DNA of 64,000 nt from Synergistales bacterium (GCA_963666205.1 OY762654.1:1344001-1408000), one strand, 5' to 3'; shown: positions 29,034-59,412, numbered from the stretch's first letter. Program-made: numbers and translations. The notes: a model not told the origin generated them from the letters alone.

Positions 29034-29066
29034 ATTGAGAATCAAAAGATCGTCTGATAAGGGGAG

Positions 29067-29124
29067 ACATTGCATACATACGGTTAAAATCAAGGTCTGA
29101 CCCCGTTATTGATCGTGTCAATAA
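29067..29124 (+). repeat. Repeat family A, copy 1 (34-bp core 29071-29104)
   Basis: TGCATACATACGGTTAAAATCAAGGTCTGACCCC, identical at 33730, 58002 and 59361. Confidence 0.95.
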
Positions 29125-29164
29125 ACAGGCGGAGGTTTACAGAGTCATACCTCCGTCTGTTTAT
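29121..29164 (-). repeat. Hairpin family B, short form (probable terminator)
   Basis: ATAAACAGGCGGAGGT...ACCTCCGTCTGTTTAT; shares GAG(T/C)CATACCTCC(G/A)TCT with 49942 and 59470. Confidence 0.7.
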
Positions 29165-29244
29165 TTATGTTATGCCTCTTCCTGGTTTTGGAGCTCCCTT
29201 TATCTACAGTTAAAACAGAAGAGCCCGGTGCATATCAGGGAAAA

Positions 29245-31011
29245 TCAGGATAACAACTGTTCCATATCCCTGAGAGCAAAGGGGAGTTGTTCAATAAAAG
29301 CATTCCTTTCCCCTTCTATGGAACTGAAACCGGTGACCGAAAGGATGAGATGATCGGACCGCTGAAGGTAACGGACAGCCAGGCCGTCTTCCTGAGCTGG
29401 ACCGTAGCCTGCAGACTCTATACCCTCTCCCGAGGTCGTACTGGTGGATATAGCAATATCCTGCAGAACTATCCATGCAGGGCTCCTGTAAATAGAGGGC
29501 AGGTTATCCAGAGGCCTGTTCCCCGCTTTCCCTTCCGCAATAGCAAGGAGGAGCCCCAGAATTCCATCAATTCCTTCTCCATTCATACACTGGGAGATCC
29601 TGTTTTTATGCAAATTAAGCGCGCCTCGAAGCACTTCCGCGCATTCACTGCGAGAATTTCCCTGTTCCTCAATTAGCTGCAGAAACTGTTTTGTACCCTC
29701 ATTAAAGGGACGCATCCCTTCTGTCCGCCCCTGCTGAAATTGGCGGAGCATCACCGATTCAAAAGCAGAACGAACACTTCCCCATGCTCTCTTCTGGGCC
29801 AGAAACAGGGCTGTCTGCAAGAATCCGTCAGGACTGACACCTAGTTCTTTTATCCTATCCTTGCCAAAATCGTTGAAACGAAGAAGGCTGAAACAGGTTT
29901 TCGAAAAGAGCTGCGATGCCTCTCTTTTCGCATATGTAACGGTCTCCTTAAGCTCACTCCCTGCTACGGGAGTGACCTCCTCGGCAACTGGGGCCTCTCC
30001 GGAAACAAGGCCATCCTGTCTGGTTCCATTACATATATGGCGTACAAAACGCCCCATGGGTGTTCCATCCCGCCTGGAATGTTCAAAGTTTATACCTATC
30101 CGGCCATTTCCAGGAACGATGAGCTGCAGGGACTTGTCGAACCAGCGGTTCCCCGGATCACCATAGAGGATATCCCTGGAAAGGTCTTCGTCATTCATTG
30201 GTCCACACCGGTCAAGACATAGAACAAACAGGCTTTTTTCAACAGTTTCAATTGCCCTTGCCACGGATGGGGAATTTCGAATAAGGCTTTTTCTGAGGGA
30301 AGCCCATTTTGTTCTTGGCAGACAAGTCAGTGCAGCCAGTGGAAATGGCTCTGGTTCGCTGCTGATATTAAGGATCGATGCAAAGGATCTTTCAAGCCCC
30401 TCACCCGGGAAAATTTCTCCATTATCATCCAGGACCCTCTGCCGGAAGATATGTCCATTACAGATAACAGTGATCCAGTCAGTTCTGTTTCGGATGTTCC
30501 TGTCAATATCTTTTCCTGGAATCCTGGTCATACCGATAATATCTTCATACTGTTCCATGGATAAAGGCAGACCCTTCCAGCAGTCGGGTCCCATTTCACC
30601 CTTCTGGATATCTTTGTAGAACTTCAGAATAGTCTGTACAGCCCTTGCAGCAAGCTCTGTGTTTCCTATTCCCAGTTCTTCTCCCCTGGGATCCAGGAGA
30701 TAAAAGGGGTTACTCTGAACAGGCAGAGATGCCCTATGGGAAAGATACCACTTCTCCCAGTAGGGCATCCATTTGAGAACCTCCGGATCGGAGGGATAAA
30801 GATCATCAAGTTCAGCACGAAGGATCTGTCCCTCCCTTCCAGGTTTCAGAAAGCTTTTTGCCGCTTTCAGGCTCTCTCCAAATTCATTATCCGACAGCAA
30901 AGGTTTTGACCACTTAAGCAGTTGCTCACAGGTTCTCTCCAGGGGTGGAAAGGACCATAAAGGTATCTTTTCTGTCAAAGCTGCTGCGATTCTATCTCTG
31001 GAATTGAACAA
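29245..31011 (-). CDS. Choline/carnitine O-acyltransferase family protein
   Basis: WYLS.R.SLPVQSNP, NRWFDKSLQLIV, GINFEHS..DG (catalytic His), SPDGFLQTA, FES...RQF..GRTE, STS motif; likely TTG start at 31011 behind AGGGG (the ORF track start at 31140 overlaps the upstream gene). Confidence 0.88.
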   Translation of the reverse strand: MFNSRDRIAAALTEKIPLWSFPPLERTCEQLLKWSKPLLSDNEFGESLKAAKSFLKPGREGQILRAELDDLYPSDPEVLKWMPYWEKWYLSHRASLPVQSNPFYLLDPRGEELGIGNTELAARAVQTILKFYKDIQKGEMGPDCWKGLPLSMEQYEDIIGMTRIPGKDIDRNIRNRTDWITVICNGHIFRQRVLDDNGEIFPGEGLERSFASILNISSEPEPFPLAALTCLPRTKWASLRKSLIRNSPSVARAIETVEKSLFVLCLDRCGPMNDEDLSRDILYGDPGNRWFDKSLQLIVPGNGRIGINFEHSRRDGTPMGRFVRHICNGTRQDGLVSGEAPVAEEVTPVAGSELKETVTYAKREASQLFSKTCFSLLRFNDFGKDRIKELGVSPDGFLQTALFLAQKRAWGSVRSAFESVMLRQFQQGRTEGMRPFNEGTKQFLQLIEEQGNSRSECAEVLRGALNLHKNRISQCMNGEGIDGILGLLLAIAEGKAGNRPLDNLPSIYRSPAWIVLQDIAISTSTTSGEGIESAGYGPAQEDGLAVRYLQRSDHLILSVTGFSSIEGERNAFIEQLPFALRDMEQLLS

Positions 31012-31024
31012 GTTAGATTCCCCT

Positions 31025-32035
31025 TTAGAGAAGGGCTTTTTCGATCCTTGCCGTTGCCTCTGGATCCCTGACCCAGGATCTCCATAGTTCGGAGTGGGTC
31101 TGCAGGAACCATTTCGCGGTTTCAGCCGGACCTGTGCCATTCTTCTTCATGTAAGCCAGAGCTTCATTGGTCAGTTCAAGAGAAGTCTTATAACGCTCCA
31201 GCATATCCCGGATCTTCGGTGAACCTTCCAGGAAATCTCGATTAGCGACCTTGAGGACTCTGCATTTAGGGAATGCACAGCCTCCCGTTTCGTTCCAGAC
31301 TTTTTCATCATAAGGAGGTTCTTCCAGTTTAGTCATGTCATACATTCCAAGAATAGGTGTGGGTTCCCAGTAATATGCCAGCACTGGTTTACCTTTTTCA
31401 TAGGCTTCAGCGATGGAAATAGCGAGTGCTGCGGCTGAACCTGTAAAGAAATTCACGAATGTATCATCAAGGCCGTAGGTTTTCAGACGTTTAGCATTTG
31501 TCACGCTAACGATCCACCCCGATGGCCCATTGTTGAAACGTCCCTTTGTCTTCTTTTCCGGATCCCTGAAAAGTTCCCAATAGCGGGAAAGGTCCGTAAC
31601 GGATCTGAGATCTGGCGCCAGAGGTTTGATGCCCCGGGTTTCATCCCCTTCGATAACGTATGTTGGAACATACCAGCCCTGTGGTGCATCCGGAAAATTC
31701 TTGCCAAGGCTTACGATCTCTCCGCGTTTTTCTGCCTTTTCCCAATAAGAAGCAGAATTATCTATCCACGCTTCCATAGCGATCTGCAGATCCCCTCTTT
31801 CTAGTCCCATAAAACCGGGGATCTCTTCTACAAATGTATATCCAACTTCCCGGTTCCATCCATTTTCTATGAGAAAACCGGCCACGCGGTTATGGAACTG
31901 GACACTTTCCCAGCTGAAATCGCCAAAGATTATCTTCCCCTGGTCGCCATAACCGGGCAGAGATCCCCCGAAAAGTAATAAGACTGCCAGAATAAACCCG
32001 CCAATAGTTTTCATACTTTTTTTCCCTTTTCTCAT
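31025..32035 (-). CDS. Glycine betaine/carnitine/choline-type ABC substrate-binding protein (ProX/OpuAC family)
   Basis: Signal peptide, SWESVQFHN, EAW, GWYVPTYV, DPE...KGRF..GP.GW, YYWEPT. Confidence 0.88.
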   Translation of the reverse strand: MRKGKKSMKTIGGFILAVLLLFGGSLPGYGDQGKIIFGDFSWESVQFHNRVAGFLIENGWNREVGYTFVEEIPGFMGLERGDLQIAMEAWIDNSASYWEKAEKRGEIVSLGKNFPDAPQGWYVPTYVIEGDETRGIKPLAPDLRSVTDLSRYWELFRDPEKKTKGRFNNGPSGWIVSVTNAKRLKTYGLDDTFVNFFTGSAAALAISIAEAYEKGKPVLAYYWEPTPILGMYDMTKLEEPPYDEKVWNETGGCAFPKCRVLKVANRDFLEGSPKIRDMLERYKTSLELTNEALAYMKKNGTGPAETAKWFLQTHSELWRSWVRDPEATARIEKALL

Positions 32036-32459
32036 TAAAATCTCCCTTCTTATGCATAAATGCTACACCGATAAACATCCCTCGGGACAGTTCCCGTGAG
32101 AAATCAACACAACAAATGACCTTCTTCATGTTGAAGAAAGCAAAAGGCCTTTAGAACATCGGTCAAACAGGGTAAAAATTCTTTGGGACCATCGGAGGGC
32201 CTGAGACCCGATGGAAAACCCGGAGGAAACACAAAACTAAAATATTGTTTATTATTATAACATATAAGAAAAAACGGTTCCTCAATGGGTGTCCAGGGAC
32301 ATAGTAGACCCTGGTTTCTTTGGGTAATATCTTATATCAATGTTCTTCTCTGGTAATATAGTGTTACACAGAAAAAAGGAAATAGAATTCGGGAAAAGTG
32401 GTCTGAATGTTCCCTGGCACCTGGAGTAACATGATCTTTCCAAACTGGAGGAAAACAAA

Positions 32460-33524
32460 ATGAACCCTAAGCACGCCCAATTAGATTGGTTGTTGTCTCT
32501 ACCCGAATGGCCGAGGGCATCCCTGGCCCTGCTGCCGACCCCCATCCATCGCCTTCCGAGACTGGCAGAACATATCGGTGGTATCGATCTCTGGATGAAG
32601 CGGGACGATCTGACCGGACTGACAGGTGGAGGGAATAAAACTCGGAAACTTGAATTCCTGGTTGCAGATGCCATAAAGGCAGGTGCGGACACACTGGTCA
32701 CTGTTGGGGCGATCCAGTCTAACCATACTCGCCAGACCGCATCAGCTGCTAAAAAAATGGGCCTGGAATGCGCTCTTCTTCACTGTTCCTGGACAGAAGA
32801 GGCCGGCCAGTATTATCGCAGCACCGGAAACATCCTTCTCAGCAGTATTCTGGGGGCAGAACTCTATTTAGACGAAGAGAGACGCCCCATTGAAGACCAG
32901 GGGCCTCTTGACGCTCTCTGCGAACACCTTCGGAGTAAGGGACAAACACCGTATCTAATTCCTGGTGGTGCTTCCGAGCATCCCCTTGGAGGATTCGGTT
33001 ATGCCGCATGTGCTGCAGAGATCACCGAACAGGCGAACTCCATGGGGATTCATGTGGACTATGTGATACACTGCACCGGCAGCAGCAGTACGCAGGCCGG
33101 CCTGGTCGCCGGATTTGCGGCCCTTGGTGAAAGAACAAGAGTGATCGGGATCCCGGATGATGATGAAACCGAGATCAAGCGAGAGCGGGTATTGCGACTG
33201 GCTAATAACACCCTGAAAAAACTTGGACGCCCGGAACAGGTGGAAATTTCGGATATCGAGATAGTTGTGGGAGATAGAAGCCCTTATGGGAAAGCAGACA
33301 GCAAGACCTACGATGTCATACGCCTGATAGCCAGAACGGAAGGTCTCGTAGCAGACCCCGTGTATGAGGGCAAATCGCTGAGGGGTCTGATGGAACTTGC
33401 ACAGAGAGGACGGTTCGAGAAGGGGTCAGTGGTTCTGTTTCTTAACCTTGGAGGAACATCGGGAATTCATGGCTATGCAGACCATTTTGAGCCCATTAAT
33501 CTGCGTCCGCTTCCAAAAGCCTGA
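32460..33524 (+). CDS. PLP-dependent ACC deaminase / D-cysteine desulfhydrase family enzyme
   Basis: PTPIHRL, KRDD..GGNKTRKLE, GAIQSNH.RQ, DPVYEGKS, LGG. Confidence 0.9.
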   Translation: MNPKHAQLDWLLSLPEWPRASLALLPTPIHRLPRLAEHIGGIDLWMKRDDLTGLTGGGNKTRKLEFLVADAIKAGADTLVTVGAIQSNHTRQTASAAKKMGLECALLHCSWTEEAGQYYRSTGNILLSSILGAELYLDEERRPIEDQGPLDALCEHLRSKGQTPYLIPGGASEHPLGGFGYAACAAEITEQANSMGIHVDYVIHCTGSSSTQAGLVAGFAALGERTRVIGIPDDDETEIKRERVLRLANNTLKKLGRPEQVEISDIEIVVGDRSPYGKADSKTYDVIRLIARTEGLVADPVYEGKSLRGLMELAQRGRFEKGSVVLFLNLGGTSGIHGYADHFEPINLRPLPKA

Positions 33525-33532
33525 GCAGTGAG

Positions 33533-33580
33533 ATCCAGACCCTGATCATCTGTAAATTTACAATGATGATCAGGGTTATC
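33533..33580. repeat. Hairpin family C, copy 1 (likely terminator)
   Basis: ATCCAGACCCTGATCATCTGTAAATTTACAATGATGATCAGGGTTATC; homologous to 43675-43723. Confidence 0.75.
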
Positions 33581-33725
33581 GACTGGGCGGTTTCCCCAGG
33601 TTAAAAATGCGATAAATTACAGATAGTAGTGACTTTATCCAATTATTTACCTTGTGGCTACCCAGTAATTCAGATCCTGTATGCACCATTCAAAGACCTT
33701 AAAACCCATTGAAGAAAACCAGGTA

Positions 33726-33783
33726 ACATTGCATACATACGGTTAAAATCAAGGTCTGACCCCATTGTTGATTGTGTCAATAA
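33726..33783 (+). repeat. Repeat family A, copy 2 (core 33730-33763)
   Basis: Identical 34-bp core; 58-bp match to copy 1 with 3 mismatches; ends 18 bp from the glucan synthase stop. Confidence 0.95.
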
Positions 33784-33801
33784 CGGGCAAGACCGCCAAT
33801 C

Positions 33802-36800
33802 TCAATCCTCCGTAACAGGGATACACACATCAACCGAGTGTTCTTTATGGTCATCAACAAGAGGAATGCCCTTATCGTGTTGTTCTATCCCATCAACTCT
33901 CACTCGCATCTCACCATTACCAGGGGGTGTTTGCAGAACGGAGATGTGGTAAACCGTCTCTCGATATCGGTAGTACATTGTGAACCCTTTCCAATCCGGA
34001 GGGAGGCACGGCGTAAAAAACAGCTTATCCACTTCAAGCCTGAGTCCCAGGAGTGATTCCAGGATCAGCCGATACATCCAGGCGGCCGAGCCCGTGTACC
34101 ATGTCCAGCCGCCACGGCCGGTATGGGGAGGCAAGGCATAAACATCGGCTGCAATAACGTACGGTTCCACCTTGTAGGTGGCCGTTTCCTGGGGGGATCT
34201 TGCGTGGTTAACCGGGTTGATCATGGTAAAGAGTTCCCAGGCACGCCGATTGTCCCCCAAGCGAGCGAAGGCCATTGCCGCCCAGATGGCCGCATGCGTA
34301 TACTGTCCTCCGTTTTCTCTCACGCCGGGAACATATCCTTTGATGTAGCCTGGATTTACCGTCGACTTGTCGAAGGGTGGGTCCAGAAGTTGGATCAGCC
34401 CATGCTCGCGGCGAACAAGGCGCTTATCGACCGCTTCCATGGCCATACAGGAACGCTCATGATCTCCCGCACCCGAAAGGACAGACCAGCTCTGCGCAAT
34501 CGAATCAATCTGACATTCAGGGTTATCTGACGATCCAAGGGGCGATCCTTCATCGAAATAGGCGCGGAGGTACCACGCGCCGTCCCAGCCATGCCTCTTA
34601 ATGTTGCCGCGCAACTGCTCGGCCTCCCTTATGCAACGCCCGGCGAAAGCCACGTCACCATGTATGCGGGCAATCTCAGCGAAACGCATTAGCACTTCAA
34701 ATAAGAAAAACCCCAACCATACGCTCTCACCTTTGCCGTGTTCACCCACCCGGTTCATGCTATCGTTCCAGTCACCGGAGCCGATGAGCGGCAGGCCGTG
34801 TTCCCCGAATCTGAGGCCGTTCAATATTGCCCTGACACAGTGATCGTAAAGACTCGCCATCTCTTCAGAGTGTCCGGGTAGATCGTAATAAGAATCTTCA
34901 TCCGGGTTCACACTGCGACCCTGGAGGAAGTGGACAGGCTCATCCAGCACACCGGTATCCCCGGTGGCGAGAACATAGCGGCACGTCGCGACCGACAGCC
35001 AAAGGTAGTCGTCCGAACAGTGAGTACGCACACCTCGACCCGTTGGAGGATGCCACCAATGTTGAACATCTCCTTCCGTGAATTGGCGGCTCGCGCACAG
35101 TAGAATCTGCTCGCGCACGAGATGCGGCCTGGCATGAACAAGAGCCATCACGTCCTGCAGCTGATCCCGGAAACCGAAAGCCCCCCCCGACTGGTAGGTT
35201 GCGCTGCGCGCCCAAAGGCGACACGTAAGAGTCTGGTAAATCAGCCAGCCGTTTGCCAGAACGTTAAGGGATGGATCAGGTGTTTCCACATTGATAGCGC
35301 CGAGGGTATGTTTCCAGTGCTGCCACACCAGGTCAAGGGCGCTGTGCGCAGTGGTTGGTCCTCGAAAATCATTGATCAGTCTTCTGGCATCGTCTGCATC
35401 CCGCCCTATTCCCAGCCTGAAGACGATTTCGCGCTCCTGCCCGGATTCCAGATCGAAGCTGATCTGGATAGCAGCGCAGGGATCCCTCCCTGCTCCCACC
35501 TTGCCAGAAAGACACGTGCGATTCATGGCGGCAGGAGCGTGCAGCGTACCGTTGCGTCCCAGAAATTCTCTCCGATCACCAGTTACAGTGCGACTGGTGT
35601 CGTCCACGTCGAAGAAAGCAGTTCGGTCATGGAATTCCATATTGTAGGGGTTGCGAGCGAAGAGTGCGCCGCTATTCGGATCAATTTCAGTGATCACGTG
35701 CATGGCCGATTTCGACCGCAGGTCGCCAAGCACCCATTCCACATATCCAGTAGCGGAGAGCCGGCGGGATTGACCAGAATCGTTACGCACTTTTAGAACC
35801 GTAAACTTGATCGCTTCATCCATAGCTACATACACCCACAATTCGGAGTGGATACCGTGCTCGGTGTGTTCAAAGACGCTGTAACCGAATCCGTGCCGGG
35901 TGACATATGGCATTTTCCCGCGGCATGGCAGTGGCGTGGGCGACCAGAATTTGCCGAGATCTTCATCACGGAGGTAAAATGCCTCTCCTCTCGAATCGCT
36001 TACAGGATCGTTTCCCCATGGAGTCAGGCGGAACTCATGGGCATTCTCACTCCAGGTGTAGGCTAGGCCGCTCTCTGATATGACAGTCCCGAAGTTCGGG
36101 TTGGCCAGCACATTCACCCAGGGAGCCGGTGTCAGTTGTCCCTGCGCGGTGGTAATAATATACTCGTGTCCGTCATGGGTGAATCCGCCAAGTCCGTTGT
36201 AGAACATCAGATCGGGGCGTGGCAAAGGTGCGACCGCCAGGGGTTCGGAGCGGGGAGTTCGCGTCGGGGTAAGAAGGGGCGCTGTTGTTTCATCAAGACT
36301 CCGTCCATTTATCTGCTCCGCCAGTGTACCCCGGCTGTCACTGATTATTACGCGTGCTACCGTTTGGATAAGGATTCGGTCTTCCTCCGCTATCCGGTCC
36401 TCAGATCTCACAAAAATACCACCGGGTCGATCAGTTATGTTGGCTTCGATGCCTGCCGTAATAAGCCCCATGATCTGGTCGTGGAGGAGTTGCCGATAAC
36501 CTGCATGATCTTCGTTCCAGATCACCAGATCCACAGCTAGTCCCTTTAGACGCCAATAGGCATGGGCCTGCACGAGTTGGCGCACCAGTTCGATATTGGC
36601 CGGATCTCCTATCTTCAGCAGGACAATCGGTAAATCGCCCGAGATGGCGTATCCCCAAAGACCGGATTGGCCCCGGTGGTTCTTTATGAGAACACTCGGG
36701 TCGGCTCGCAGCGAGGCATTGGCATAGATGATCGAACTGGCGAGACGCCCATAGAGTTGCGCATCTGCCTCTGACGCATTAGACTGGCGCAGCAGTACCT

Positions 36801-43575: not shown

Positions 43576-43674
43576 AACCAGGATATCTTATACTGGAGAA
43601 AATGCTAGGGGTATGAATCATCCCAGTTTCGTAAACTTTGGCATTAGGTTCGTTTTAACAGCCGCAATGGGAAA

Positions 43675-45970: not shown

Positions 45971-45986
45971 ACCTTTGAGTCTGTTA

Positions 45987-46027
45987 AGAGGAGAAGAGCA
46001 GAGATATATCCTCTGCTCTTCTCCTCT
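45987..46027 (+). terminator. Long intercistronic hairpin after the TAXI gene
   Basis: AGAGGAGAAGAGCAGAG / CTCTGCTCTTCTCCTCT perfect 17-bp stem. Confidence 0.7.
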
Positions 46028-46066
46028 AGTGTGAGTGTTTAGGTTAGTAATAGTGGAGGGTTCATA

Positions 46067-48888: not shown

Positions 48889-48900
48889 CAGGGAGGTTTT

Positions 48901-49299: not shown

Positions 49300-49301
49300 A
49301 C

Positions 49302-49691: not shown

Positions 49692-49759
49692 AGCCTGGAT
49701 TAGCCAATGGGTCCCATTGGTATGATTCCGGGCAATTGATACCACTTGCAGTAAATGCG

Positions 49760-49794
49760 ACCCGGGGCATAAGATTCTGCCCCGGGTATTTTTT
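49760..49794 (+). terminator. Intrinsic terminator of the TAXI-dapA operon
   Basis: ACCCGGGGCA...TGCCCCGGGT followed by ATTTTTT. Confidence 0.8.
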
Positions 49795-49880
49795 ACCATT
49801 GGAATATATCCTTTTTTCAGGGAGCGAGATTCATGAAAACTGCTGATTCAAGATCTGGCTCCGATTTTTTTATGTGAATA

Positions 49881-49959
49881 AAAAAAGAGACCGGTCGGCA
49901 TAAAGAAGTCTCATCCATCTGGCGAACCAGACGGGCGACTAGAGCCATACCTCCGTCTC
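49881..49959 (-). repeat. Hairpin family B, long form
   Basis: TCTGGCGAACCAGA (49918-49931) and GAGCCATACCTCCGTCT (49942-49958), shared with 59444-59486. Confidence 0.7.
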
Positions 49960-50120
49960 AAATGTTATTTCAGACCTTTCATACCTTAAAATCCAGTAAG
50001 GACATGAGAACCTGTTTCTTCCCAGATCTATGCTTATTCCGATCTAAACCAGTTCCTGCATCTGTCCCTGGACCATCTCATTTATTTCAAAAGAACACGC
50101 AATAATATTGGATCGATTTT

Positions 50121-51653
50121 TTATTTCAGATTCTCCAGATAGGATCCTGCCAGTTTTAAATGTCTATTCAGTTTACTCCTGTCCATTCTTTCAAGGTTTT
50201 TCAGCATTATTTTCTGCCTGGGATTTCTGCTGAATTCATCCCTGTGGACATGAATGAATCGCCAGAAAAGGGAATCAAGTATCTGGCACCACTCTCCCTT
50301 CTGGTAACGGCCCATCCTCAGCAGGTAGCCTGAACTGCACAGATACGGTTTAGTTACCATGCTTCCGCCGTCCGAGAACTGGCTCATACCATATACATTT
50401 GGAACCATTACCCAGTCGAAGGCATCGATAAAACGGGACATGAACCACCGATAAACCTCGTCAGGTTGGACCTCGCAGAGAAGAAGGAAATTCCCGAGCA
50501 GCATCAGCCTCTCGATATGATGAGCATAGGAATATTGTTCTACTTTTTTAAGGCAGATATCTATGGGGATAATCCCCGTTTCACCATTAATAAAAGATTC
50601 AGGAATCGCCCTTTCATGGCGCCAGAAATTTGAAGTTCTCATGATATTACCTCTTTTACGATAAACAAGACGCATAAATTCTCTCCACCCGCAGATCTGC
50701 CTGATAAATCCTTCTATATTGTTAACAGGGATATCTTTTTCTCCCACGTATTTCATCGTATCCTCAAGAACTTCCGAGGGAGTCAGTAACCCTGTATTAA
50801 GGGAAGAAGAGATCACGGAATGGAAAAGAAAAGGATGTTGAGGGGTCATGGCATCCTCATAGTCACCAAAATGACACAGTCTGTGATTTAAAAAATCATC
50901 AAGCATCTCCCTTGCATGATCCCCTGTAACAGGATAGATAAAATTGTTACAGTTACCTGGATTATCAGGATAATTTTTCCCGATTTCGGCAGCAAGATCC
51001 TCCAGATCGGGGGAATAAGAAAAACAAGGCAGGGAAGGGACTTCAATTTCCTGAGGCAGTTTTTGTCGATTGGATGGATCATGGCTCCATTTACCGCCTT
51101 TCGGTCTCCCTTTTTCATCAACAAGTATCTGAAAACGTTTTCTCTGGTTTATGTAAAAACTGGTCATGGAAAGCTGTTTTCCCCTTAGGGGAAGTTGGTC
51201 CTCCTCTCCCCTGAGACAAAGGAAAGCAGGTGATTCCAGAATTTCCAGTGAAAGGCCAGTTTGTTCTGAAGCATCCTTAAGTCTCTTTTCAAGAAGGTGA
51301 TCTGCGGGATCTGCCAGGAAAAGTTTCAGAATTCCTTTTTCATTAATATTTTCAAAAAGATCCCTGTATGCTGAAGCCCCCTTTTGATAACTGACAATTG
51401 CAGTTTCGTATCCTCTGGATGAAAGGTTTTTCTGATATTCAAGACATGATGCCATGTGAAGAAGCAGCTTCTGTTTCGAGAAACTGCAGGGGTACTTCCA
51501 GTCTTTCCAGAAAAGCTGGTCCTGGACTATAAAGACCCTTCTTCCCCTTTTTAAACATGGATGGTGTCTGAAAAGCTGTGTCGGGAAAACAAGAACTCCC
51601 TCATTAAGGGGTGAAGATTCCACTTTTTCTACTTTTATCTTTTCATTCTTCAT
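50121..51653 (-). CDS. Cryptochrome/photolyase-related protein (PhrB-like prokaryotic 6-4 photolyase group)
   Basis: LVFPTQLF, P.GGKWS.D..NR, FGDYEDAM, LFHS..S..LN.GLL, EGFIRQICGWREF, YAHHIERLM, DAFDWVMVPNVYGM, TKPY. Confidence 0.9.
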   Translation of the reverse strand: MKNEKIKVEKVESSPLNEGVLVFPTQLFRHHPCLKRGRRVFIVQDQLFWKDWKYPCSFSKQKLLLHMASCLEYQKNLSSRGYETAIVSYQKGASAYRDLFENINEKGILKLFLADPADHLLEKRLKDASEQTGLSLEILESPAFLCLRGEEDQLPLRGKQLSMTSFYINQRKRFQILVDEKGRPKGGKWSHDPSNRQKLPQEIEVPSLPCFSYSPDLEDLAAEIGKNYPDNPGNCNNFIYPVTGDHAREMLDDFLNHRLCHFGDYEDAMTPQHPFLFHSVISSSLNTGLLTPSEVLEDTMKYVGEKDIPVNNIEGFIRQICGWREFMRLVYRKRGNIMRTSNFWRHERAIPESFINGETGIIPIDICLKKVEQYSYAHHIERLMLLGNFLLLCEVQPDEVYRWFMSRFIDAFDWVMVPNVYGMSQFSDGGSMVTKPYLCSSGYLLRMGRYQKGEWCQILDSLFWRFIHVHRDEFSRNPRQKIMLKNLERMDRSKLNRHLKLAGSYLENLK

Positions 51654-51880
51654 AACAATTACACTCTCCAGTAATTATTCTTTGCAATATATTCTTTCAT
51701 TAACATACTGTTCTTGTAAATAGAATTTGACCAGAATCAGCATCTGAAGAGATGAAGCTGATTTAAAACTGACCGGGGAAGTTGTATGAAAGCTTAATGA
51801 TCAGAAGAGGCCCGATTTCAGAAAAGCTGACTTTACATCTAAAACAATGATCCAGACCACTTTCACATCTTGTATCTAAA

Positions 51881-51939
51881 ACAATTATGTCAAGTTTTCT
51901 ATATAAAAAACTTGACATAATTGTATCGGAACCTATACT
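51881..51939 (+). promoter_or_regulatory. abiE promoter overlapped by an 18-bp perfect inverted repeat (autorepression operator)
   Basis: ACAATTATGTCAAGTTTT (51881-51898) / AAAACTTGACATAATTGT (51907-51924); TTGACA 51912 and TATACT 51934. Confidence 0.8.
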
Positions 51940-51975
51940 TGTTACCAGAGATAACAACTTAAGGAGGGGGCTATT

Positions 51976-52710
51976 ATGCCCGTAATGAAAAAACTCAAGC
52001 AGGACATAGCCAGAATGGAAAGCGGAACCGTTTTTTCATACAATGATCTCAAATTCAGCGAATTACAAAAGGGCGCTCTTGCAAAAGCTCTCAGCAGACT
52101 TGTTAAAGAGGGAATCATTCAGAGATTCTCAAAAGGGAAATACTACAAACCGAGAAAAACCAGGTTTGGATACCTTCCTCCTGCAGAAGACCAGATTATT
52201 GAAAAATGCCTTACCAGAGAGGGAAAAACAAGAATTGGATATGAAAGTGGAATCAATATATATCGAAAACTTGGCCTTACTAACCAGATTTCGAATGAAA
52301 TAATAATAGCAACTTCGAAACTCGGGAAAAGTTCTTTTTATTTTAATAACATCAGAATTAAATTCATCCGACAGAAGAACACGATTACCGATAAGAACAT
52401 CTATTACCTGCAACTCCTGGATGCTTTAAAAGAAATTAAAAAGATCCAGGACAGCGATCTGAATCAGTCTTTGAGGATTCTGAAGACTAAATTACAGGAA
52501 CTGGATCCGAATGAACGAAAAAGGATGATATCTCTGGCAAAACGATACAACCCTGCTACCAGAGCTCTGTTTGGGGCATTGTTGGAAAGTATCGGAGAAT
52601 CTCCAGACGCTCTCTTGCCACTCAAGCGATCCCTGAACTCTCTCACCAGGTTTATTTTGAAACTGGATCCGCAGATCCTACCGAATAAAGCGTTATGGCA
52701 GATCGCTTAG
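51976..52710 (+). CDS. Type IV TA antitoxin, AbiEi-like (DUF6088-type)
   Basis: N-terminal wHTH KALSRLVKEG.I.R..KG.YYKP, GY.SG..IY..LGLT.Q; directly upstream of an AbiEii-type gene. Confidence 0.82.
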   Translation: MPVMKKLKQDIARMESGTVFSYNDLKFSELQKGALAKALSRLVKEGIIQRFSKGKYYKPRKTRFGYLPPAEDQIIEKCLTREGKTRIGYESGINIYRKLGLTNQISNEIIIATSKLGKSSFYFNNIRIKFIRQKNTITDKNIYYLQLLDALKEIKKIQDSDLNQSLRILKTKLQELDPNERKRMISLAKRYNPATRALFGALLESIGESPDALLPLKRSLNSLTRFILKLDPQILPNKALWQIA

Positions 52711-52722
52711 GTAACTGTCATA

Positions 52723-53697
52723 ATGAATATTCACGAAAACCCTGATTTATTCAACGATGTAGTTGACGCCACTTCAATATGGAAAGGGATAAGATCCCTC
52801 TATATTGAAAAGGATTATTGGGTATGCAAAGTGCTGAAAAACCTTTCCAATTCCATATTTCAATCTGAAATAATTTTTAAAGGAGGTACATCTTTATCAA
52901 AAGCATTCGGTATTATAGAGCGTTTCTCTGAAGATATTGACCTTGCGATCATAAAAAGGGACAACCTCACAGACAATCAGATTAAACGAAAAATGAAACA
53001 GGCTATAAGCTGTATTGCTTCAGACCTCAGAGAAGATCCCGCCGACCTACGAATGAGTAAAAGAGGACGCTTTCGTAAAATACCTTTCAAATACCCTCAT
53101 AGAAAAACTTCCTCAAGTATTGTTGATCAGGTTTCAGAAAACCTGTTGGTCGAATTTAACTCTTTTGCCGACCCCAATCCTGCATGTTCAAGAATTATAA
53201 CCAGCTATATCTATGATTTTTTGAAAGAAAATGGCGATGAAGAATTGATATCAGAATATGATCTCTATCCTTTCGAAGTCTCAACCTTATGCCCCAAAAG
53301 AACATTTACGGAAAAGATCTTTGCCATCGGAAGTACCTCATACAGGGAGCATGCTATTGAAAATTTAAAAACCGGTATCCGCCATTTCTATGATCTGCAC
53401 ATGCTCTTTTCACATAAGTACTTCGGGAATTTTATCAGTTCTACTGAATTTCCATTGTATTGCCACAAAGTAAAAGAAGCTGACCATACGAACGCTAACT
53501 TCGGACTTGATTGGGATACACATCCCTTGTCCTCAGCACCTATTTTCAAGAACCCCAATGAATACTGGGCAGAGATATCCCTCACATACGAAAGAGATTT
53601 TGGAGGACTGGTATTCGGGAATTTTCCGGATAAATCAGAGATCGAAAAATCTCTGATAGATATTTCAAATCATGTTATTGAGCACAGTATGGTTTAG
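52723..53697 (+). CDS. Nucleotidyltransferase toxin, AbiEii/AbiGii family
   Basis: IEKDYWV, FKGGTSLSKA...I.RFSEDIDL, RTFTEK, RHFYDL. Confidence 0.9.
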   Translation: MNIHENPDLFNDVVDATSIWKGIRSLYIEKDYWVCKVLKNLSNSIFQSEIIFKGGTSLSKAFGIIERFSEDIDLAIIKRDNLTDNQIKRKMKQAISCIASDLREDPADLRMSKRGRFRKIPFKYPHRKTSSSIVDQVSENLLVEFNSFADPNPACSRIITSYIYDFLKENGDEELISEYDLYPFEVSTLCPKRTFTEKIFAIGSTSYREHAIENLKTGIRHFYDLHMLFSHKYFGNFISSTEFPLYCHKVKEADHTNANFGLDWDTHPLSSAPIFKNPNEYWAEISLTYERDFGGLVFGNFPDKSEIEKSLIDISNHVIEHSMV

Positions 53698-53880
53698 ACC
53701 AAATTCACCGAGGAGTACGCCATAGAAAATGCTCTCGAAGATTACTGATGAATTTAAACATTGTTTTGTTATCAATGTTACAACATCCTGCTGACATAAA
53801 ACTGATCCCCAAGGGGTCACAACTCTGCAAAAGTGGAGATTACCCATTACAATTTGCCCTATTTGAATTACAGCAACTAT

Positions 53881-53917
53881 ATTGCATATAAATGCTTGAA
53901 ATAAAGCCTTGACTCCC
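53881..53917 (+). repeat. Repeat family A, decayed copy
   Basis: ATTGCATATAAATGCTTGAAATAAAGCCTTGACTCCC aligns colinearly with ATTGCATACATACGGTTAAAATCAAGGTCTGACCCC. Confidence 0.6.
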
Positions 53918-54061
53918 AAATAGTTGCTGATTTTAAAGAAAGAATTGGCCGACTTGAAAGATTTTCAGGAAAACTTTTAGTAAACTTGAAACTGATATGT
54001 TATTAGATTGAATAGAGTGTCGAAATAATTCTTACTTAGCAAATTTCAGGGGAGGAAGAGA

Positions 54062-54853
54062 ATGGCTATCAATCTTGAAGAGTGTTCTGCAAAACTCAAA
54101 AAACATCTTTTTCTGAGAACAGAACCATTGGGCATTGGGATGCTGAAGATGGGAGAAGAAAAACCGGATGGATTTCTTCAGCCTTATAAAGATCTGGGCT
54201 ATCATTTATCAACCTGCCAGGGTTTTGCATTATCGAGAAGGAGCAAAATGTCCCTTCTAATGACAATGAATGATATGTGGTGCTTTGAACCGGTTGTGGG
54301 ATTTGGTCTGGCTACTCCGCCAGAAGATTTTCTTGAGGGGCATAACAGGTATCCCGGCACTGCAAGTTCTCTTGAAGCAGGGAAACAATGGGCTTCCAAC
54401 ATGCCCCGTTTCGAGGTTGGCAAATACCAGGGTGTGCTTTCCGCTCCTCTATCTTCATTCGGAAGGGACAGATCTCCTGATGTGGTAATAATATACTGTG
54501 ATCCATCCCAGTTGACCCATATTATGAGAGCCGTTAACTGGATCGATGGACATGATATATATTCAAGGATCTCTGCGCATGCCGCCTGCGTATATGCGGT
54601 GATCCCCACCATGCTGGAAAATAATTTTCAGGTAGTTGTCCCCTGCGGCGGTGACAGAAGAAGAGCAGCAGCCCAGGATAACGAGATCATCTTCAGTGCA
54701 CCCGTTGATAAACTGGAAAAACTTGTAAAAGGTCTTGACGCGGTAGGAGAAGCAGATGGTGGGCTTCCTGTGCAATTTACACTTAAAGAAGAATACCCCC
54801 TGGAACCTCATTATAAAAAAATGGGCCTGGAAATAGGAATGAAACTGGATTAA
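54062..54853 (+). CDS. DUF169-family protein
   Basis: L.LRTEP.G, CQ...LSRR, APL....PDVVIIY..P.Q, AAC, PC.GDR..A..QD.E. Confidence 0.85.
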   Translation: MAINLEECSAKLKKHLFLRTEPLGIGMLKMGEEKPDGFLQPYKDLGYHLSTCQGFALSRRSKMSLLMTMNDMWCFEPVVGFGLATPPEDFLEGHNRYPGTASSLEAGKQWASNMPRFEVGKYQGVLSAPLSSFGRDRSPDVVIIYCDPSQLTHIMRAVNWIDGHDIYSRISAHAACVYAVIPTMLENNFQVVVPCGGDRRRAAAQDNEIIFSAPVDKLEKLVKGLDAVGEADGGLPVQFTLKEEYPLEPHYKKMGLEIGMKLD

Positions 54854-54911
54854 GGATAAATGTGAACACAGAACCGCAATTTTTGCAGAATATTGAATAA
54901 CAAACTACCTC

Positions 54912-54938
54912 AAGGGGAAGCTGTCAAAGCTTCCCCTT
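54912..54938 (+). terminator. Intrinsic terminator
   Basis: AAGGGGAAGCT-GTCAA-AGCTTCCCCTT followed by ATTATT. Confidence 0.7.
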
Positions 54939-55332
54939 ATTATTCACGACCGCATATGATGCAGACAACCCTTTTGCTTTAACCACGAAACATCTCAGTG
55001 CGTTCAGCTTGTCTGAAACAAAAAAAAGAGCTTTCAATATCAATAGGCTAGTACCCGGTTCTTGTGGTTCATGACATTTCTGTCGTCCGGGAACATGTGA
55101 TATATATCAATTGAAAGAAAACATCAGAAAATGATCATTAAAATAAAGGAAAGTGTAAGTTTCAGCCTTAAGCCAAATATGTATCGATATGCTATATTAG
55201 CATGGAGAATTGAGATGGCATTTTGTAGAGGGGTGAAATACTACGAAATTCCGGAATAACAATTTACATGAGTATGGCAAAATATTCAGGAACATATTAC
55301 CTGTTATAGGTCTTTCACTTTTTGTATCTGCC

Positions 55333-57822
55333 TTGTGGATACTTCATAAGGAGCTTAAGGATTACCATGTCCACGATATAATATATCAACTGACACAGAC
55401 CCCTTTAAGATTTATTCTTCTGGCATTTTTATTTACCTTGTTCGATTATTTTACTCTTACCCTGTACGATTTCCTTGCCCTTAGAAGCATAGAGCATCCA
55501 TTGGATTACGGCAATATCTGTTCGGTGTCATTCATTTCCTTTGCTTTTAGCCATAATATAGGATTTTCCCCGGTTTCAGGTGGATCTGTCCGTTACAGAA
55601 TATATACCTCACTGGGTCTTTTACCTGGTGAAATCGCGAGGGTAATAGCCTTTACCACCGGGACTTTCTGGTTAGGATACAGTATTGTTGGAGGGATTGC
55701 TTTTTTGTTTGACCCTCTTGTTCTGCCAGAACAATTTCATATACCCTTTGGTTCCCTCCATTTTCTTGGTATCCTGCTTTTGATCCCCGGGATTTTTTAT
55801 ATAGGATTTTCCCTTCTGAAACATGACACTCTCAAGATCAATGGAATAAAGATGAAACTTTATAGTCCTTCTATACTCCTTCCGCAGATTCTTATTGCTT
55901 TTTCTGACTGGATTCTTGCCGCATCTGTACTGTTTATATTGATACGGGATATTTCTGATATATCGTTTTTTTATTTTTCAGGTATTTTCCTGCTGGCTCA
56001 GCTCTCAGGAGTTTTGAGCCAGGTACCGGGGGGATTAGGTGTCTTTGAAACGGTTATAGTATTGCTTATGCCTCCATCCATTGACAGGCACTCTCTTTTG
56101 GGCACCCTTCTTGTTTACAGAGGTATTTATTACCTTATACCCTTTTTTACGGCAATTATATGCCTGGGATTCCGGGAAACAGGTTTGAACAAAAAGTTGT
56201 TAGTTGCTGGAGGAAAGAGGGTAGCTTTTGTTCTGTTTCCCTTGATACCCTACCTGTTTTCGCTGGGCACTTTTATAGCTGGCGCAATTCTTCTAGCAAC
56301 AGGTTCCCTTCCTGTACCTATAGGCTATCTGCAGTTTCTGGAGAAATATATTCCTCTTACATTAGTTGAGGTATCTCATTTTATGGGTGCTCTCACAGGT
56401 ATGGCTTTGATTTTTCTATCCGGGGGGCTGCGGAGAAAGATAGATACAGCCTGGTTACTTACGTGTGTTCTGCTTACATCGGGAATTATTTTTTCTATTC
56501 TGAGAGGTTCCCATTACGTTGAGGTCGGGATACTTGTGGCCATGCTCATTCCACTTATCCCGGCAAAAAAGCATTTTACCCGCAAAGGCATGCTGTTAGG
56601 GAACGTAATGAGCATTCAATGGCTGGCAAGCGTTTTTCTTGTTTTGATTACCACATCATGGTTAGGATTTTTTTCCTACCGTCATGTAAATTATTCATCA
56701 CAGCTATGGTGGCAGTTTACCCTTGAAAATAATGCGCCAAGATTCCTGAGAGCCCAGGCTGGAATTGTTATTTTCCTCAGTTTAATAGCCCTGAAACAGT
56801 TATTCACACATGCAAAAGCACAAGAGACCATGGGACAGATCGACCGATCCAGGGTCGAAAGCATAGTATCCCTTTCACCAAGAAGTGATGCTTCCCTCGC
56901 CCTTCTGGGAGATAAAAAGTTCTTGTTCAGCAATTCCGGAAATTCCATGATCATGTATGGTGTCCGTGGTAAAAGATGGATCTCCATGGGTGATCCTCTC
57001 GGGGTGAAAGAAGAATGGCCGGGTTTACTATGGGATTTTCGGGAACTTGCCGATAAATATGGTGGAAATGCTATCTTCTACCAGGTATCTCCCACACAGA
57101 TCGTGAATTATGTTGATATGGGATTGACCCTTGTCAAACTTGGAGAAGTGGGCAAAGTCCCTCTCTATGATTTCAATCTTGAAGGAAGTTCACACAAGAA
57201 GTTCAGGTGGACTCTCAGGAAAGCGGAAAAAGAAGGTTTAAGTTTCAGGGTACTTATGCCTCCAGAAACGAATATCATAATGGATAATATCGAAGAGATC
57301 TCCGATCTCTGGCTGGCTGATAAAAACACCAGGGAGAAAGGATTCTCTCTCGGATCTTTTAACAGGGAATACCTGGCCAGATTTCCTGTCGGGATAGTAG
57401 AGCTGAATTCCTCCATAGTGGCTTTCTCAAACTTCTGGGTCAGTTATGAGAAGGAGGAAATATCCCCTGATCTCATGCGTTATAAATCTGGCATTCCCTC
57501 AGAAGTAATGGATTATCTTTTTTTAAAGTCCATGATATGGGGAAAAGAACAGGGATTCAGATATTTTAATCTTGGAATGTCTCCACTTTCCGGACTTGAA
57601 GGACATAAAATGGCGCCCTTATGGCAAAAGTTCGGGAATTTCCTGTACCGTCATGGAGAATATTTTTATAATTTTCAGGGATTAAGAATGTACAAAGATA
57701 AATTTTCGCCCCAATGGGAAGCACGCTACCTCGCATTTCCTGGAAAATTATCTCTGCCAGGAACATTGGCAGATGTGTCGGCACTTATTGCCGGGGGAAT
57801 ACCTGGCATCTTCGGGAAATAA
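55333..57822 (+). CDS. mprF: Bifunctional aminoacyl-phosphatidylglycerol flippase/synthase
   Basis: GGSVRYRIY, SQVPGGLGVFE, YRGIYY, LALLGDK, MGDPLG, KLGE, EKGFSLG, DLMRY, FNLGMSPL, YNFQGLR.YK.KF.P.WE; the true N-terminus probably lies upstream (see findings). Confidence 0.92.
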   Translation: MWILHKELKDYHVHDIIYQLTQTPLRFILLAFLFTLFDYFTLTLYDFLALRSIEHPLDYGNICSVSFISFAFSHNIGFSPVSGGSVRYRIYTSLGLLPGEIARVIAFTTGTFWLGYSIVGGIAFLFDPLVLPEQFHIPFGSLHFLGILLLIPGIFYIGFSLLKHDTLKINGIKMKLYSPSILLPQILIAFSDWILAASVLFILIRDISDISFFYFSGIFLLAQLSGVLSQVPGGLGVFETVIVLLMPPSIDRHSLLGTLLVYRGIYYLIPFFTAIICLGFRETGLNKKLLVAGGKRVAFVLFPLIPYLFSLGTFIAGAILLATGSLPVPIGYLQFLEKYIPLTLVEVSHFMGALTGMALIFLSGGLRRKIDTAWLLTCVLLTSGIIFSILRGSHYVEVGILVAMLIPLIPAKKHFTRKGMLLGNVMSIQWLASVFLVLITTSWLGFFSYRHVNYSSQLWWQFTLENNAPRFLRAQAGIVIFLSLIALKQLFTHAKAQETMGQIDRSRVESIVSLSPRSDASLALLGDKKFLFSNSGNSMIMYGVRGKRWISMGDPLGVKEEWPGLLWDFRELADKYGGNAIFYQVSPTQIVNYVDMGLTLVKLGEVGKVPLYDFNLEGSSHKKFRWTLRKAEKEGLSFRVLMPPETNIIMDNIEEISDLWLADKNTREKGFSLGSFNREYLARFPVGIVELNSSIVAFSNFWVSYEKEEISPDLMRYKSGIPSEVMDYLFLKSMIWGKEQGFRYFNLGMSPLSGLEGHKMAPLWQKFGNFLYRHGEYFYNFQGLRMYKDKFSPQWEARYLAFPGKLSLPGTLADVSALIAGGIPGIFGK

Positions 57823-57998
57823 AACCGCGGTAAAGTCCTTTTTTACCAGGTACTGCCCCATTAAAAAGGAACGCATTCGGGTCTGCGGAATTCCAACCAT
57901 GTTGGCGGCAATTATGACCCGGTTTTTCTGAGAATATACCAGATGTATATCGAAAAGATGTGAATTGGAAATTAGAAAACCACATTACTCAAAGGCAG

Positions 57999-58050
57999 CA
58001 TTGCATACATACGGTTAAAATCAAGGTCTGACCCCATTATTGTTTGTGTA
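57999..58050 (+). repeat. Repeat family A, copy 3 (core 58002-58035)
   Basis: Identical 34-bp core plus ATTATTG; core ends 32 bp from the rhuM stop. Confidence 0.95.
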
Positions 58051-58067
58051 ACCTGATCTCTATTCTG

Positions 58068-59123
58068 CTAGATTTTTTTCGATTTTTCCCCAACAACCTG
58101 AATATCTTTTAACGCCTTATCAAAATCATTTTCGAAAAGATGATCCTGGACTATTCTGTATTTTTCAAACTCGCTTTCGGCAAAGTTTTTTGCCATCTCA
58201 GCAGAAATTTGCCCACTATCCTTCAAGATATCTCTATCAGTAAATTCAATAAACATATCCAGTCGTTTCGACCAGTCTTCCATAGTCATAGGGATCCTGC
58301 GTCTGGCACGCTCCTCCGCCAGATCAAGGTAGGCATTTACAATTCTGCCAAGAGCTCCCAGTTCTTCTTTCGTTAAATAGTTCTTAGCAATAGAAACATC
58401 ACTTTTCAGGATCTTTCCATCGGGGCCATTCTTCCATGAAGTCAATCCCATATTTTCCTTGCTGCTATCAGAACGCTTCGTGATAAGTTCTGCAGCGGTG
58501 TGACCATGAATAGCAAAATGAAGTTTGTTCTGAACCTTGGCAAAAAAGGCTCTGGTTGTGGGTGCATCCCTGTTGTAGTCAATACTGGTAGAATATATAT
58601 CGGTAATTTTCTGATAAAAACGTCTCTCGCTCAGTCGGATCTCCCGGATCTCTTCAAGAAGATGCTCAAAATAATCTTCCCCCAGGAAAGAACCATTTTC
58701 CATCCTTTTTTTATCAAGGACATAACCCTTGATAGCAAATTCTTTGAGAACCTGGGTAGCCCACTGGCGGAACTGTGTCGCTCTAATGGAATTGACCCTG
58801 TAGCCTACAGATATGATGGCATCCAGGTTATAGAACTGGGTTAAATATTCCTTCCCATCAGAAGCAGTATTCCGGAATTTCCGGATAACTGATTCGGCTT
58901 TTAATTCAGAGCTTTGAAAAATATTTTTAAGATGTTCACTCACAGTTCTTACATCAACATCAAAAAGCTCTGCCATAAGCTTTTGTGATAACCATATTGT
59001 GTCATCCTCATACCTGGCTTCTATGCTTGTTTCACCGCTCTGAGCAGTAAATATCAGAAATTCCGATGTGGAGTTCCGGATCATCTGCCTTTGACCTTTC
59101 ATATGGTTTCCCAGTGAGAACAC
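58068..59123 (-). CDS. RhuM-family (virulence RhuM) protein
   Basis: IWLSQKLMAELF, YNLDAIISVGYRVNS.RATQFRQWA, IREIRLSERRFYQK, AKNYL; probable start ATG near 59102. Confidence 0.92.
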   Translation of the reverse strand: MFSLGNHMKGQRQMIRNSTSEFLIFTAQSGETSIEARYEDDTIWLSQKLMAELFDVDVRTVSEHLKNIFQSSELKAESVIRKFRNTASDGKEYLTQFYNLDAIISVGYRVNSIRATQFRQWATQVLKEFAIKGYVLDKKRMENGSFLGEDYFEHLLEEIREIRLSERRFYQKITDIYSTSIDYNRDAPTTRAFFAKVQNKLHFAIHGHTAAELITKRSDSSKENMGLTSWKNGPDGKILKSDVSIAKNYLTKEELGALGRIVNAYLDLAEERARRRIPMTMEDWSKRLDMFIEFTDRDILKDSGQISAEMAKNFAESEFEKYRIVQDHLFENDFDKALKDIQVVGEKSKKI

Positions 59124-59360
59124 CCCCTGTATTTCCGATCTATGCTCATAAAATCATAGCTTTTCCATAGAAAGCTGCTAACAGGACCTCTAATTCAAAC
59201 AAGTCTGATCTAACAAATAAAGGCTGCCTCTCCATATAAATACTATTTGTATATATTTTAGCATTTAGATCTGGAATGGAAAACAGCGTTGTTTTTGTAC
59301 CAATGCTCCCCGAAATGATAAGTTCTGATGCAAACCTGCCCCACTAAATAAAAAGAGAAC

Positions 59361-59410
59361 TGCATACATACGGTTAAAATCAAGGTCTGACCCCATTATT
59401 GGTAATGTCA
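59361..59410 (+). repeat. Repeat family A, copy 4 (core 59361-59394)
   Basis: Identical 34-bp core plus ATTATTG; 41-bp exact match to copy 3. Confidence 0.95.
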
Positions 59411-59412
59411 GG

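Follow-up and report, generated by a model that had tools for sequence, protein, structure and literature searches.

Dispersed 34-bp repeats in a Synergistales genome are very probably orphan ends of a TIRtron

Why does the same 34-bp sequence recur, letter for letter and always in the same orientation, next to accessory-looking genes in a bacterial chromosome? The question is raised by a stretch of 64,000 nucleotides from a Synergistales bacterium (GCA_963666205.1, OY762654.1:1344001-1408000), hereafter the window, which corresponds to G000:C1:1344001-1408000 in a complete genome of 2,948,783 bp (2.95 Mb; G000). A reading made from the sequence alone had proposed that four copies of the repeat bracket accessory genes as part of a gene-cassette or non-autonomous mobilisation system. 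Our analysis indicates that the repeat is very probably the terminal inverted repeat (TIR), about 36-40 nt long, of a TIRtron, in which the gene for a TIRYT, a RAYT-like tyrosine transposase of the Y1 HUH type with a C-terminal helix-turn-helix (HTH), lies between inverted copies, and that the window copies are its orphan ends.

The copies in the window are sharply defined. Copy 1 (29071..29104), copy 2 (33730..33763), copy 3 (58002..58035) and copy 4 (59361..59394) are exact 34-mers on the plus strand. The window contains exactly these four, as had been read, and 100 dinucleotide-preserving shuffles of it contain none. Each is a solo in right-end orientation, with the outer end reading ...GACCCC at copy 1, and the window holds no inverted partner for any of them. 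On the map of open reading frames (ORFs) all four are intergenic, and three lie at convergent junctions (28284-29033+/29245-31140-, 32460-33524+/33802-42600- and 55333-57822+/58068-59123-), both in agreement with the earlier description. Copy 2 has a PALP-enzyme gene on one side and a gene for a 2932-aa GH94 protein on the other, and copies 3 and 4 lie to the left and right of a RhuM gene. Flank alignment recovered the continuation RTTRTTG..TGT at 4/4 copies and delimits a shared unit consisting of (A)CATTGC, a 31-nt core ending in GACCCC, and RTTRTTGnTnnTGT. A decayed fifth copy that had been suggested at 53881 did not hold up: only about 26 of 35 positions match by hand count on the alignment, and a whole-genome search with a profile built from the copies missed it at E <= 10. 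The absence of a transposase or recombinase from the window was borne out for Y1_Tnp, Phage_integrase and DDE_Tnp_Tn3, each with 0 matches, other transposase families not having been searched.

The repeat is a genome-wide family. Allowing up to 3 mismatches, the 34-mer occurs at 14 places (nine forward, five reverse) and the reversed control pattern at none. The profile recognizes 16 TIR copies at E <= 8e-11, with the next match at E = 0.11. The 31-nt core is exact in 13 of these 16, and all 16 are intergenic relative to ORFs of 60-90 aa or more. Outside the core, genome-wide conservation is limited to the three bases ATT on the outer side, with a T-rich run after them, and to 5-7 semi-conserved bases on the inner side (CATTGC, TAATAGT or TAATACTGA). 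All 13 exact copies end on the outer side in GGGGTCAG, and the 13-nt outer end gives 19 matches in the genome versus 1 for its reversed control. Five further exact 13-nt matches lie outside the 16-copy family (G000:C1:2109570, 2122591, 1438703, 1509374 and 1888422); the two at 2.11-2.12 Mb (2109570 and 2122591) adjoin segments repeated at about 80% identity. These five may be ends of other or extinct TIRYT families.

The sequence-only reading had predicted a trans-acting Y1 gene flanked by inverted copies of the motif. Such a gene is present 149 kb past the window end, at G000:C1:1556563-1557408 (-), which makes its RAYT-like lead the right one. It is the best of three whole-genome matches to Pfam Y1_Tnp and is located between inverted TIRs at 1555575(-) and 1557428(+), a pair that encloses a 1.8-kb DNA segment; the gene-proximal TIR ends about 20 nt before the ATG. 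The product of 282 aa matches Y1_Tnp (E 3.6e-13, 50.1 bits, cut-off 23) and, at residues 244-282, HTH_28 (28.7 bits, cut-off 25). Across 11 aligned homologues, Tyr118 and the two histidines of the HUH motif (H59 and H61) do not vary, and 10/11 keep Asn122 of the Y---NP motif. A profile search of solved structures returned Escherichia coli TnpArep (4er8_A) as the best hit, a weak match (E 0.017), and the single protein gave 0 matches to solved structures at E <= 0.01.

These features correspond to a published class of elements. Di Nocera, De Gregorio and Rocco (2013) described RAYT-like genes that have long TIRs instead of GTAG repetitive extragenic palindromes (REPs) and named them TIRtrons encoding TIRYTs (PMC3733652). 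According to their survey, many TIRYT TIRs have the terminal consensus GGGGWSAS in common, and some genomes contain moderately abundant TIR families made up of singles, dimers and groups (PMC3733652). Quentin et al. (2018) placed 20/26 TIRYTs in TnpA-Y1 subclass 2.1, which they characterize by HTH_23, HTH_28 or Bac_DnaA_C tails and the class-2 motif Y---NP and report from 14.9% of the strains surveyed (PMC6006769). Their automatic and manual searches, as described for this subclass, found no REP-like sequences around its genes (PMC6006769). The motif GGGG(A/T)(C/G)A(C/G), which the sequence-only reading had cited, is this same consensus as given in these two papers (PMC3733652; PMC6006769), and the repeat ends in GGGGTCAG. 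As far as sequence can define the class, all features of a TIRtron with its TIRYT are present: the Y1 HUH core with Y---NP, the HTH_28 tail, long inverted repeats bracketing the gene, and GGGGWSAS.

The association of repeat and gene extends to relatives. At a threshold of E <= 1e-10, the TIRYT protein found matches in 13 of 41 related genomes (G000 included), and a 23-50-nt inverted-repeat pair flanks or adjoins the gene at eight of the ten homologue loci searched. In G003, G004, G020, G021 and G027 these pairs are compact, their arms being 915-1318 nt apart. The search gave no flanking pair for L002 and L016, which carry paralogues in G000 and G001, or for L006 (G037); each of these three loci has one exact 13-mer end beside the gene. 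The outer ends at the homologue loci mostly read GGGGTCAG(A/G)(C/T)CT and the inner halves vary between clades. In G027 (L004 4345-4400, G027:C1:595345-595400) the TIRYT frame even enters the TIR, and its TGA stop lies within the conserved GGTCTGACC end. Among 268 genomes of the phylum searched with up to 3 mismatches, the G000-type 31-nt core occurs in 14, G000 included, with a control count of 0. Leaving G000 aside, it is found in 1/4, 7/9 and 5/19 genomes of families f1, f6 and f9, with no match in other families. An orthologue lies between or beside the copies in eight genomes of three families (G000, G001, G018, G027, G050, G052, G266 and G267), a check that left out G051, G258, G264 and G265 of the 14 core-bearing genomes; the orthologues are 57-93% identical, that of G018 being a 55-residue fragment at 73%.

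The relatives also carry miniature forms. In G027 two perfect head-to-head TIR palindromes have nothing between their arms (L005, G027:C1:300001-309000, positions 4474-4533 and 8889-8950); one of them folds at -35.5 kcal/mol (z -12), and both resemble a minimal REPIN- or MITE-like version of the element. G049, G050 and G052 contain non-coding inverted pairs with 30-63 nt between the arms. These miniature pairs and palindromes therefore bear out the proposed existence of a non-autonomous form. In the window, copy 1 had been thought to keep a degenerate left arm, and DNA folding agrees that this arm pairs with the core (-9.7 kcal/mol, z -2.64, equalled by 4 of 200 shuffles). Copy 1 folds better than shuffles on both strands (z -1.86 on the other) because it retains a 12-nt inverted left-arm remnant of its former partner, which overlaps it at 29061-29072. 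A single TIR unit, represented by copies 2, 3 and 4 and the two TIRtron arms, folds no better than shuffles (five of seven folds).

Two small genes share the TIRtron segment of G000 with the TIRYT gene, encoding a PC4-like protein of 71 aa and a 180-aa ORF of no known family (L001 3681-4506 (-), genome 1555681-1556506). PC4-like proteins have a single-strand-DNA-binding fold. We rejected the idea that the two are dedicated cargo of the TIRtron, as they are also neighbours in G003, on contig C177, which has no TIRYT match; from this distribution they appear to be resident genes. The sole sigma-70-like site upstream of the TIRYT gene (L001 5420-5447 (-), genome ~1557420-1557447) has its -35 box within the TIR and its -10 box ending 8 nt ahead of the ATG. 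The site is no more than a consensus match, with 1 site found versus 0.8 expected in shuffles, and its position suggests a leaderless or near-leaderless message and possible autoregulation. Copy 1 has no promoter-like site. A paralogous Y1-HTH gene (L002, G000:C1:1640001-1646000, positions 2337-3219; 54% identity) lies 7 kb from dnaA. It has one exact GGGGTCAGGTCTT end (1643207), 37 nt upstream of its ATG, and no recognisable second, downstream arm, and Thr replaces the Asn of its Y---NP motif. The layout is the same in the congener G001 (L016), and the paralogue may be inactive or repurposed.

Do the window copies delimit cassettes, then? Compared with G001, whose coding DNA is 81-95% identical to that of G000, the window region is a species-variable mosaic. 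Blocks conserved between the two are 26075-29226 (with copy 1), 29245-32295, 49799-51803, 53997-54994 and 58043-59357 (RhuM). Specific to G000 are 32296-43854 (PALP gene, copy 2 and GH94 gene), ~43988-49798, 51804-53996 (AbiE pair) and 54995-58042 (MprF, a GIY-YIG remnant and copy 3), as well as about 10 kb from copy 4 onward. G001 in turn has 12.6 kb of its own sequence starting about 120 nt past copy 1, whose orthologue there (C14:189008-189038) carries 3 mismatches. Homology breaks 7 nt outside copy 3; copy 4 has one break 4 nt inside it and another at its outer edge, and a further break lies 9 nt outside the 2099540 copy. The bracketing claim is thus partly supported: RhuM does lie between two direct copies, and some breaks fall 4-9 nt from the repeat edges. 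The other variable blocks are not bounded by copies, copy 2 being interior to block 32296-43854, and neither a clean empty site nor an excision joint was found. The cassette idea is not demonstrated.

Of the neighbours named in the earlier reading, the carnitine acyltransferase, the giant GH94 gene, RhuM and AbiEii were recognized by Pfam. The GIY-YIG assignment is a lead only: the 249-aa ORF concerned (28284..29033, +) gave an Atlas feature match of 0.97 to GIY_YIG_3 clusters and 0 matches in Pfam and NCBIfam. The 11.5-kb block 32296-43854, with its gene for a pyridoxal phosphate (PLP) enzyme and that for the 2932-aa protein with GH94 and glucoamylase domains, has no DNA-level counterpart anywhere in G001. 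The 2.2-kb G000-specific insertion 51804-53996 carries a type IV toxin-antitoxin or abortive-infection module made up of DUF6088 and AbiEii. No direct repeats were found around block 43988-49798.

The window copies have a local history of their own. Together with the copy at genome position 1409962, just outside the window, they form a sub-family within a 37-kb cluster that has about 20 nt of the outer side in common in 5/5 copies. The earlier statement that shared sequence stops just upstream of the repeat is right for copies 2 and 4; copies 1 and 3 and the 1409962 copy have 175-330 nt of upstream flank in common. This flank derives from the GIY-YIG-like ORF, whose end lies on the inner TIR side, 38 nt short of copy 1. 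A remnant of its 3' end (57846..58001, +) is fused to copy 3 and can be aligned with what lies upstream of copy 1 and the 1409962 copy. The pieces form nested left-end truncations on the inner side: copy 1 has the full length, the 1409962 copy ~330 nt and copy 3 ~175 nt. Alignments also delimit a module (59395..59508, +) outward of copy 4, a GC-rich hairpin with a T-rich run after it, which we call Y; a related module is also found 3' of copy 1. From the extra sequence common to the five clustered copies we conclude that TIR-containing segments have been copied between neighbouring intergenic regions, as judged from the alignments.

For RhuM (58068..59123, -; Pfam Virulence_RhuM, E = 2.5e-111), the homology of its block with G001 spans 58043 to 59357. 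At the position of copy 4, G001 has a terminator-like hairpin and no copy; the module of TIR and Y lies to the right of RhuM in G000 and to its left in G001, where the Y counterpart (C14:169705-169820) is preceded by a decayed TIR-like stretch. Read by eye, decayed TIR-like remnants are present left of RhuM in G001, including one at the copy 3 junction. Seven copies can be matched as orthologous between the two genomes: three at the TIRtron locus, those at 2099540 and 1973976, copy 1 and copy 3. In four of these pairs the 31-nt core is identical, with flanks only 79-92% identical, and in the remaining three one species has 3-4 mismatches or a remnant. We calculate that, with ~12% divergence, ~2% of neutral 31-mers would be expected to show no change; this comparison therefore indicates that the core is constrained or homogenised.

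Direct traces of movement were sought in the G001 comparison and in assembled contigs of 4 of 23 runs. In these contigs the summed depth is high over both TIR bins, and loose ends fall exactly at the TIR edges, where similarity between copies also stops; contigs from other samples diverge exactly at such edges (58035, 58042, 59362 and 59397-59400). One metagenome relative has the same TIRYT-proximal junction. No excision joint, and none from copy 3 to copy 4, was seen in the contigs of the 4 runs, which cannot show rare forms such as rare excision products; a few skips with short sides (24-40 nt) in metagenome contigs cannot be interpreted. In our reading, the bases just beyond the arms of each G000 inverted pair are not direct repeats. 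For the 2092144 copy G001 offers no clean empty site, its intergenic region being different and longer. This copy forms, with 2099540(+), a second inverted pair, 2092144(-)/2099540(+), whose 7.4-kb interior contains ordinary transporter and enzyme genes.

Several observations weigh against the TIRtron interpretation. Most copies in G000, 12/16, are solos and unable to form the hairpin that the model needs. The inverted pairs, the G001 comparison and the contigs of the 4 runs revealed no target-site duplication, no clean empty site and no excision joint. No biochemical or transposition evidence for any TIRYT was found in the literature examined, where the works listed under the names TIRYT and TIRtron are the 2013 and 2018 surveys, neither of them functional. 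The protein scores 78.3 bits against the NCBIfam equivalog REP_Tyr_transpos (NF047646), 1.7 under the cut-off of 80. G035 bears the repeat without a TIRYT match, as does G049, a genome only 56% complete. Finally, in G000 and G001 the other arm lies past the PC4-like and 180-aa genes. Because these two resident genes lie between the arms, the 'pair' may consist of a gene-proximal end plus a solo.

The copies are unevenly distributed along the chromosome. With dnaA at 1635335-1635826 (1.635 Mb) and the cumulative GC-skew minimum at 1.70 Mb, all 16 copies (1055456-2138992) fall within -580 kb to +503 kb of dnaA, i.e. in 37% of the genome, and the TIRYT gene is 78 kb from dnaA. This origin-proximal clustering is only suggestive, as the interval was picked after the data had been seen and the copies are clustered. 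It may reflect local hopping, single-stranded DNA near the origin, or chance clustering. For 10/12 solos the GGGGTCAG strand is on the lagging-strand template (two-sided binomial p = 0.039). We rejected a replication-strand bias, which when counted by cluster amounts to 5/7 and is not significant.

How might such a system work? By analogy with the HUH Y1 family, the HTH tail would anchor the TIRYT on the TIR, and the HUH/Tyr core would cut a single DNA strand at the conserved GGGGTCAG end or immediately beyond it and rejoin it via a 5'-phosphotyrosine (PMC6006769). Two inverted ends on one strand could pair into a hairpin, giving a REPIN-like substrate moved in trans by the single-copy gene. 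Dimers and the TIRtron itself would be the plausible mobile units because their two inverted ends can pair into the hairpin that such enzymes use. Solo ends would be unable to fold alone and most likely remained after the loss of one arm or recombination between copies. Those at several block junctions of the origin-proximal variable region are probably recombination points more than cassette borders; as leftovers, solos might still act as recombination points or binding sites. A stronger version, in which solo ends are live substrates and the TIRYT, or host recombination guided by it, reshuffles accessory blocks in the origin-proximal third, seems to us unlikely. If it applied, the module of TIR and Y on either side of RhuM would have moved as an excised circle, and the nested GIY-YIG truncations at three copies would be footprints of one-ended HUH-type mobilisation.

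The evidence must also be held against explanations in which no TIRYT moves these ends. The system could be domesticated, with the TIR mainly a conserved operator or architectural binding site for the HTH tail that no longer moves, which would leave the identity of the element unchanged. The unchanged core in 4/7 orthologous pairs despite diverged flanks would fit this well, as would an exact copy in another family (G266), though the TIRYT proteins are only 57-62% identical, and the fact that each genome has one orthologous gene, whose locus is conserved between G000 and G001. Autoregulation would be permitted by the -35 box that falls within the TIR, a consensus match only. However, copy positions differ between the congeners, the 2092144 copy lacking a G001 counterpart and G001 copies lacking G000 counterparts, and the module of copy 4 and Y is on opposite sides of RhuM in the two species. 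The copies have no consistent position or orientation relative to genes, and the miniature inverted pairs of the relatives look mobile, so we regard domestication as doubtful. It is improbable that the copies are inert relics, spread by local segmental duplication and gene conversion with no end-specific enzyme. The five copies of the 37-kb cluster do have extra sequence in common on both sides (the outer ~20 nt, the Y module and the GIY-YIG pieces), as such copying would leave. Still, the TIR plus ATT is all that the other 11 share, the divergence of contigs from other samples sets in exactly at the TIR edges, and in 8 genomes the repeat family is linked to the TIRYT gene.

Different enzymes fare worse. 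The ends of a DDE-type transposon, or miniature inverted-repeat transposable elements (MITEs) derived from it, for example Tn3-family-like ones moved by a DDE transposase, might look much like this non-palindromic element, which is ~38 nt long, begins with GGGG, may resemble Tn3-family ends and encloses segments of 1.8 kb and 7.4 kb as inverted pairs. Yet the complete genome has 0 DDE_Tnp_Tn3 matches, with positive controls matched in 2 genomes, the 7.4-kb interior holds transporter and enzyme genes only, and the gene between such ends is Y1-HTH in every relative examined, which makes this origin highly implausible. Hardly more credible is a Xer/dif-like tyrosine recombinase site or an integron-like cassette site, even if the window copies are co-oriented and beside accessory genes. 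Of the six Phage_integrase genes, situated at 0.20 and 2.53-2.80 Mb, not one is near any of the 16 copies, which span 1.06-2.14 Mb. A single copy has no attC-type hairpin, and an Rfam scan of the whole window gave 0 matches at the gathering threshold. The 11-6-11 recombinase core that had been offered as an alternative reading is not supported, with arms that on direct inspection match at only 6/11 positions and Phage_integrase genes far from every copy.

A TIRtron with scattered orphan ends, the reading we prefer, has consequences for annotation: the window's 'accessory genes' should not be taken for cassettes that belong to a new system of mobilisation. TIRYTs are widespread, yet they have been named from genome surveys only. 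The present genome is a convenient test case, being complete, with one intact gene, one degenerate paralogue, 16 sharply defined ends and a congener available. To be explained are the near-invariant 31-nt core across species and families, the solos at rearrangement junctions, and the restriction of the copies to within ~0.6 Mb of dnaA.

Among known systems, the closest likeness is with the published TIRtrons: a Y1 HUH core with Y---NP and an HTH_28-type tail, a gene between long inverted repeats and not GTAG hairpins, an outer end GGGGTCAG that fits GGGGWSAS, and a modest dispersed family of singles and dimers. The present instance differs from them in that it is in a genome labelled as Synergistota, that the downstream arm in G000 and G001 lies past two extra resident genes, that solos dominate (12/16), and that the same TIR is almost unchanged across three families. 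REPs and REPINs with their RAYTs, the REPtrons of Enterobacteria and Pseudomonas, likewise combine a single-copy Y1 gene flanked by inverted copies with a repeat also dispersed between genes, and the inverted doublets of the relatives fold into long hairpins as REPINs do. In contrast to REPtrons, however, the single unit here is not a palindrome, its core reads without a GT[AG]G foot and contains no GTAG or GTGG, copies number tens and not hundreds, and the protein has an extra HTH tail and a score under the NCBIfam RAYT cut-off. Canonical REP/RAYT membership was rejected, as there is no GT[AG]G-footed hairpin and the 78.3 bits stay below 80. With IS200/IS605 elements the TIRYT has the Y1 HUH catalytic core (Pfam Y1_Tnp) in common, and single-strand cut-and-join would be expected of both. 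Those elements are described as lacking inverted terminal repeats and as having subterminal hairpins together with a Y---Q motif (PMC6006769), and we rejected membership since the ends here are inverted repeats and the motif is Y---NP. The short non-coding inverted TIR pairs of the relatives, with 0-63 nt between arms, resemble MITEs, from which they differ in that the presumed enzyme is a tyrosine HUH nuclease and not a DDE transposase and that no target duplication was seen.

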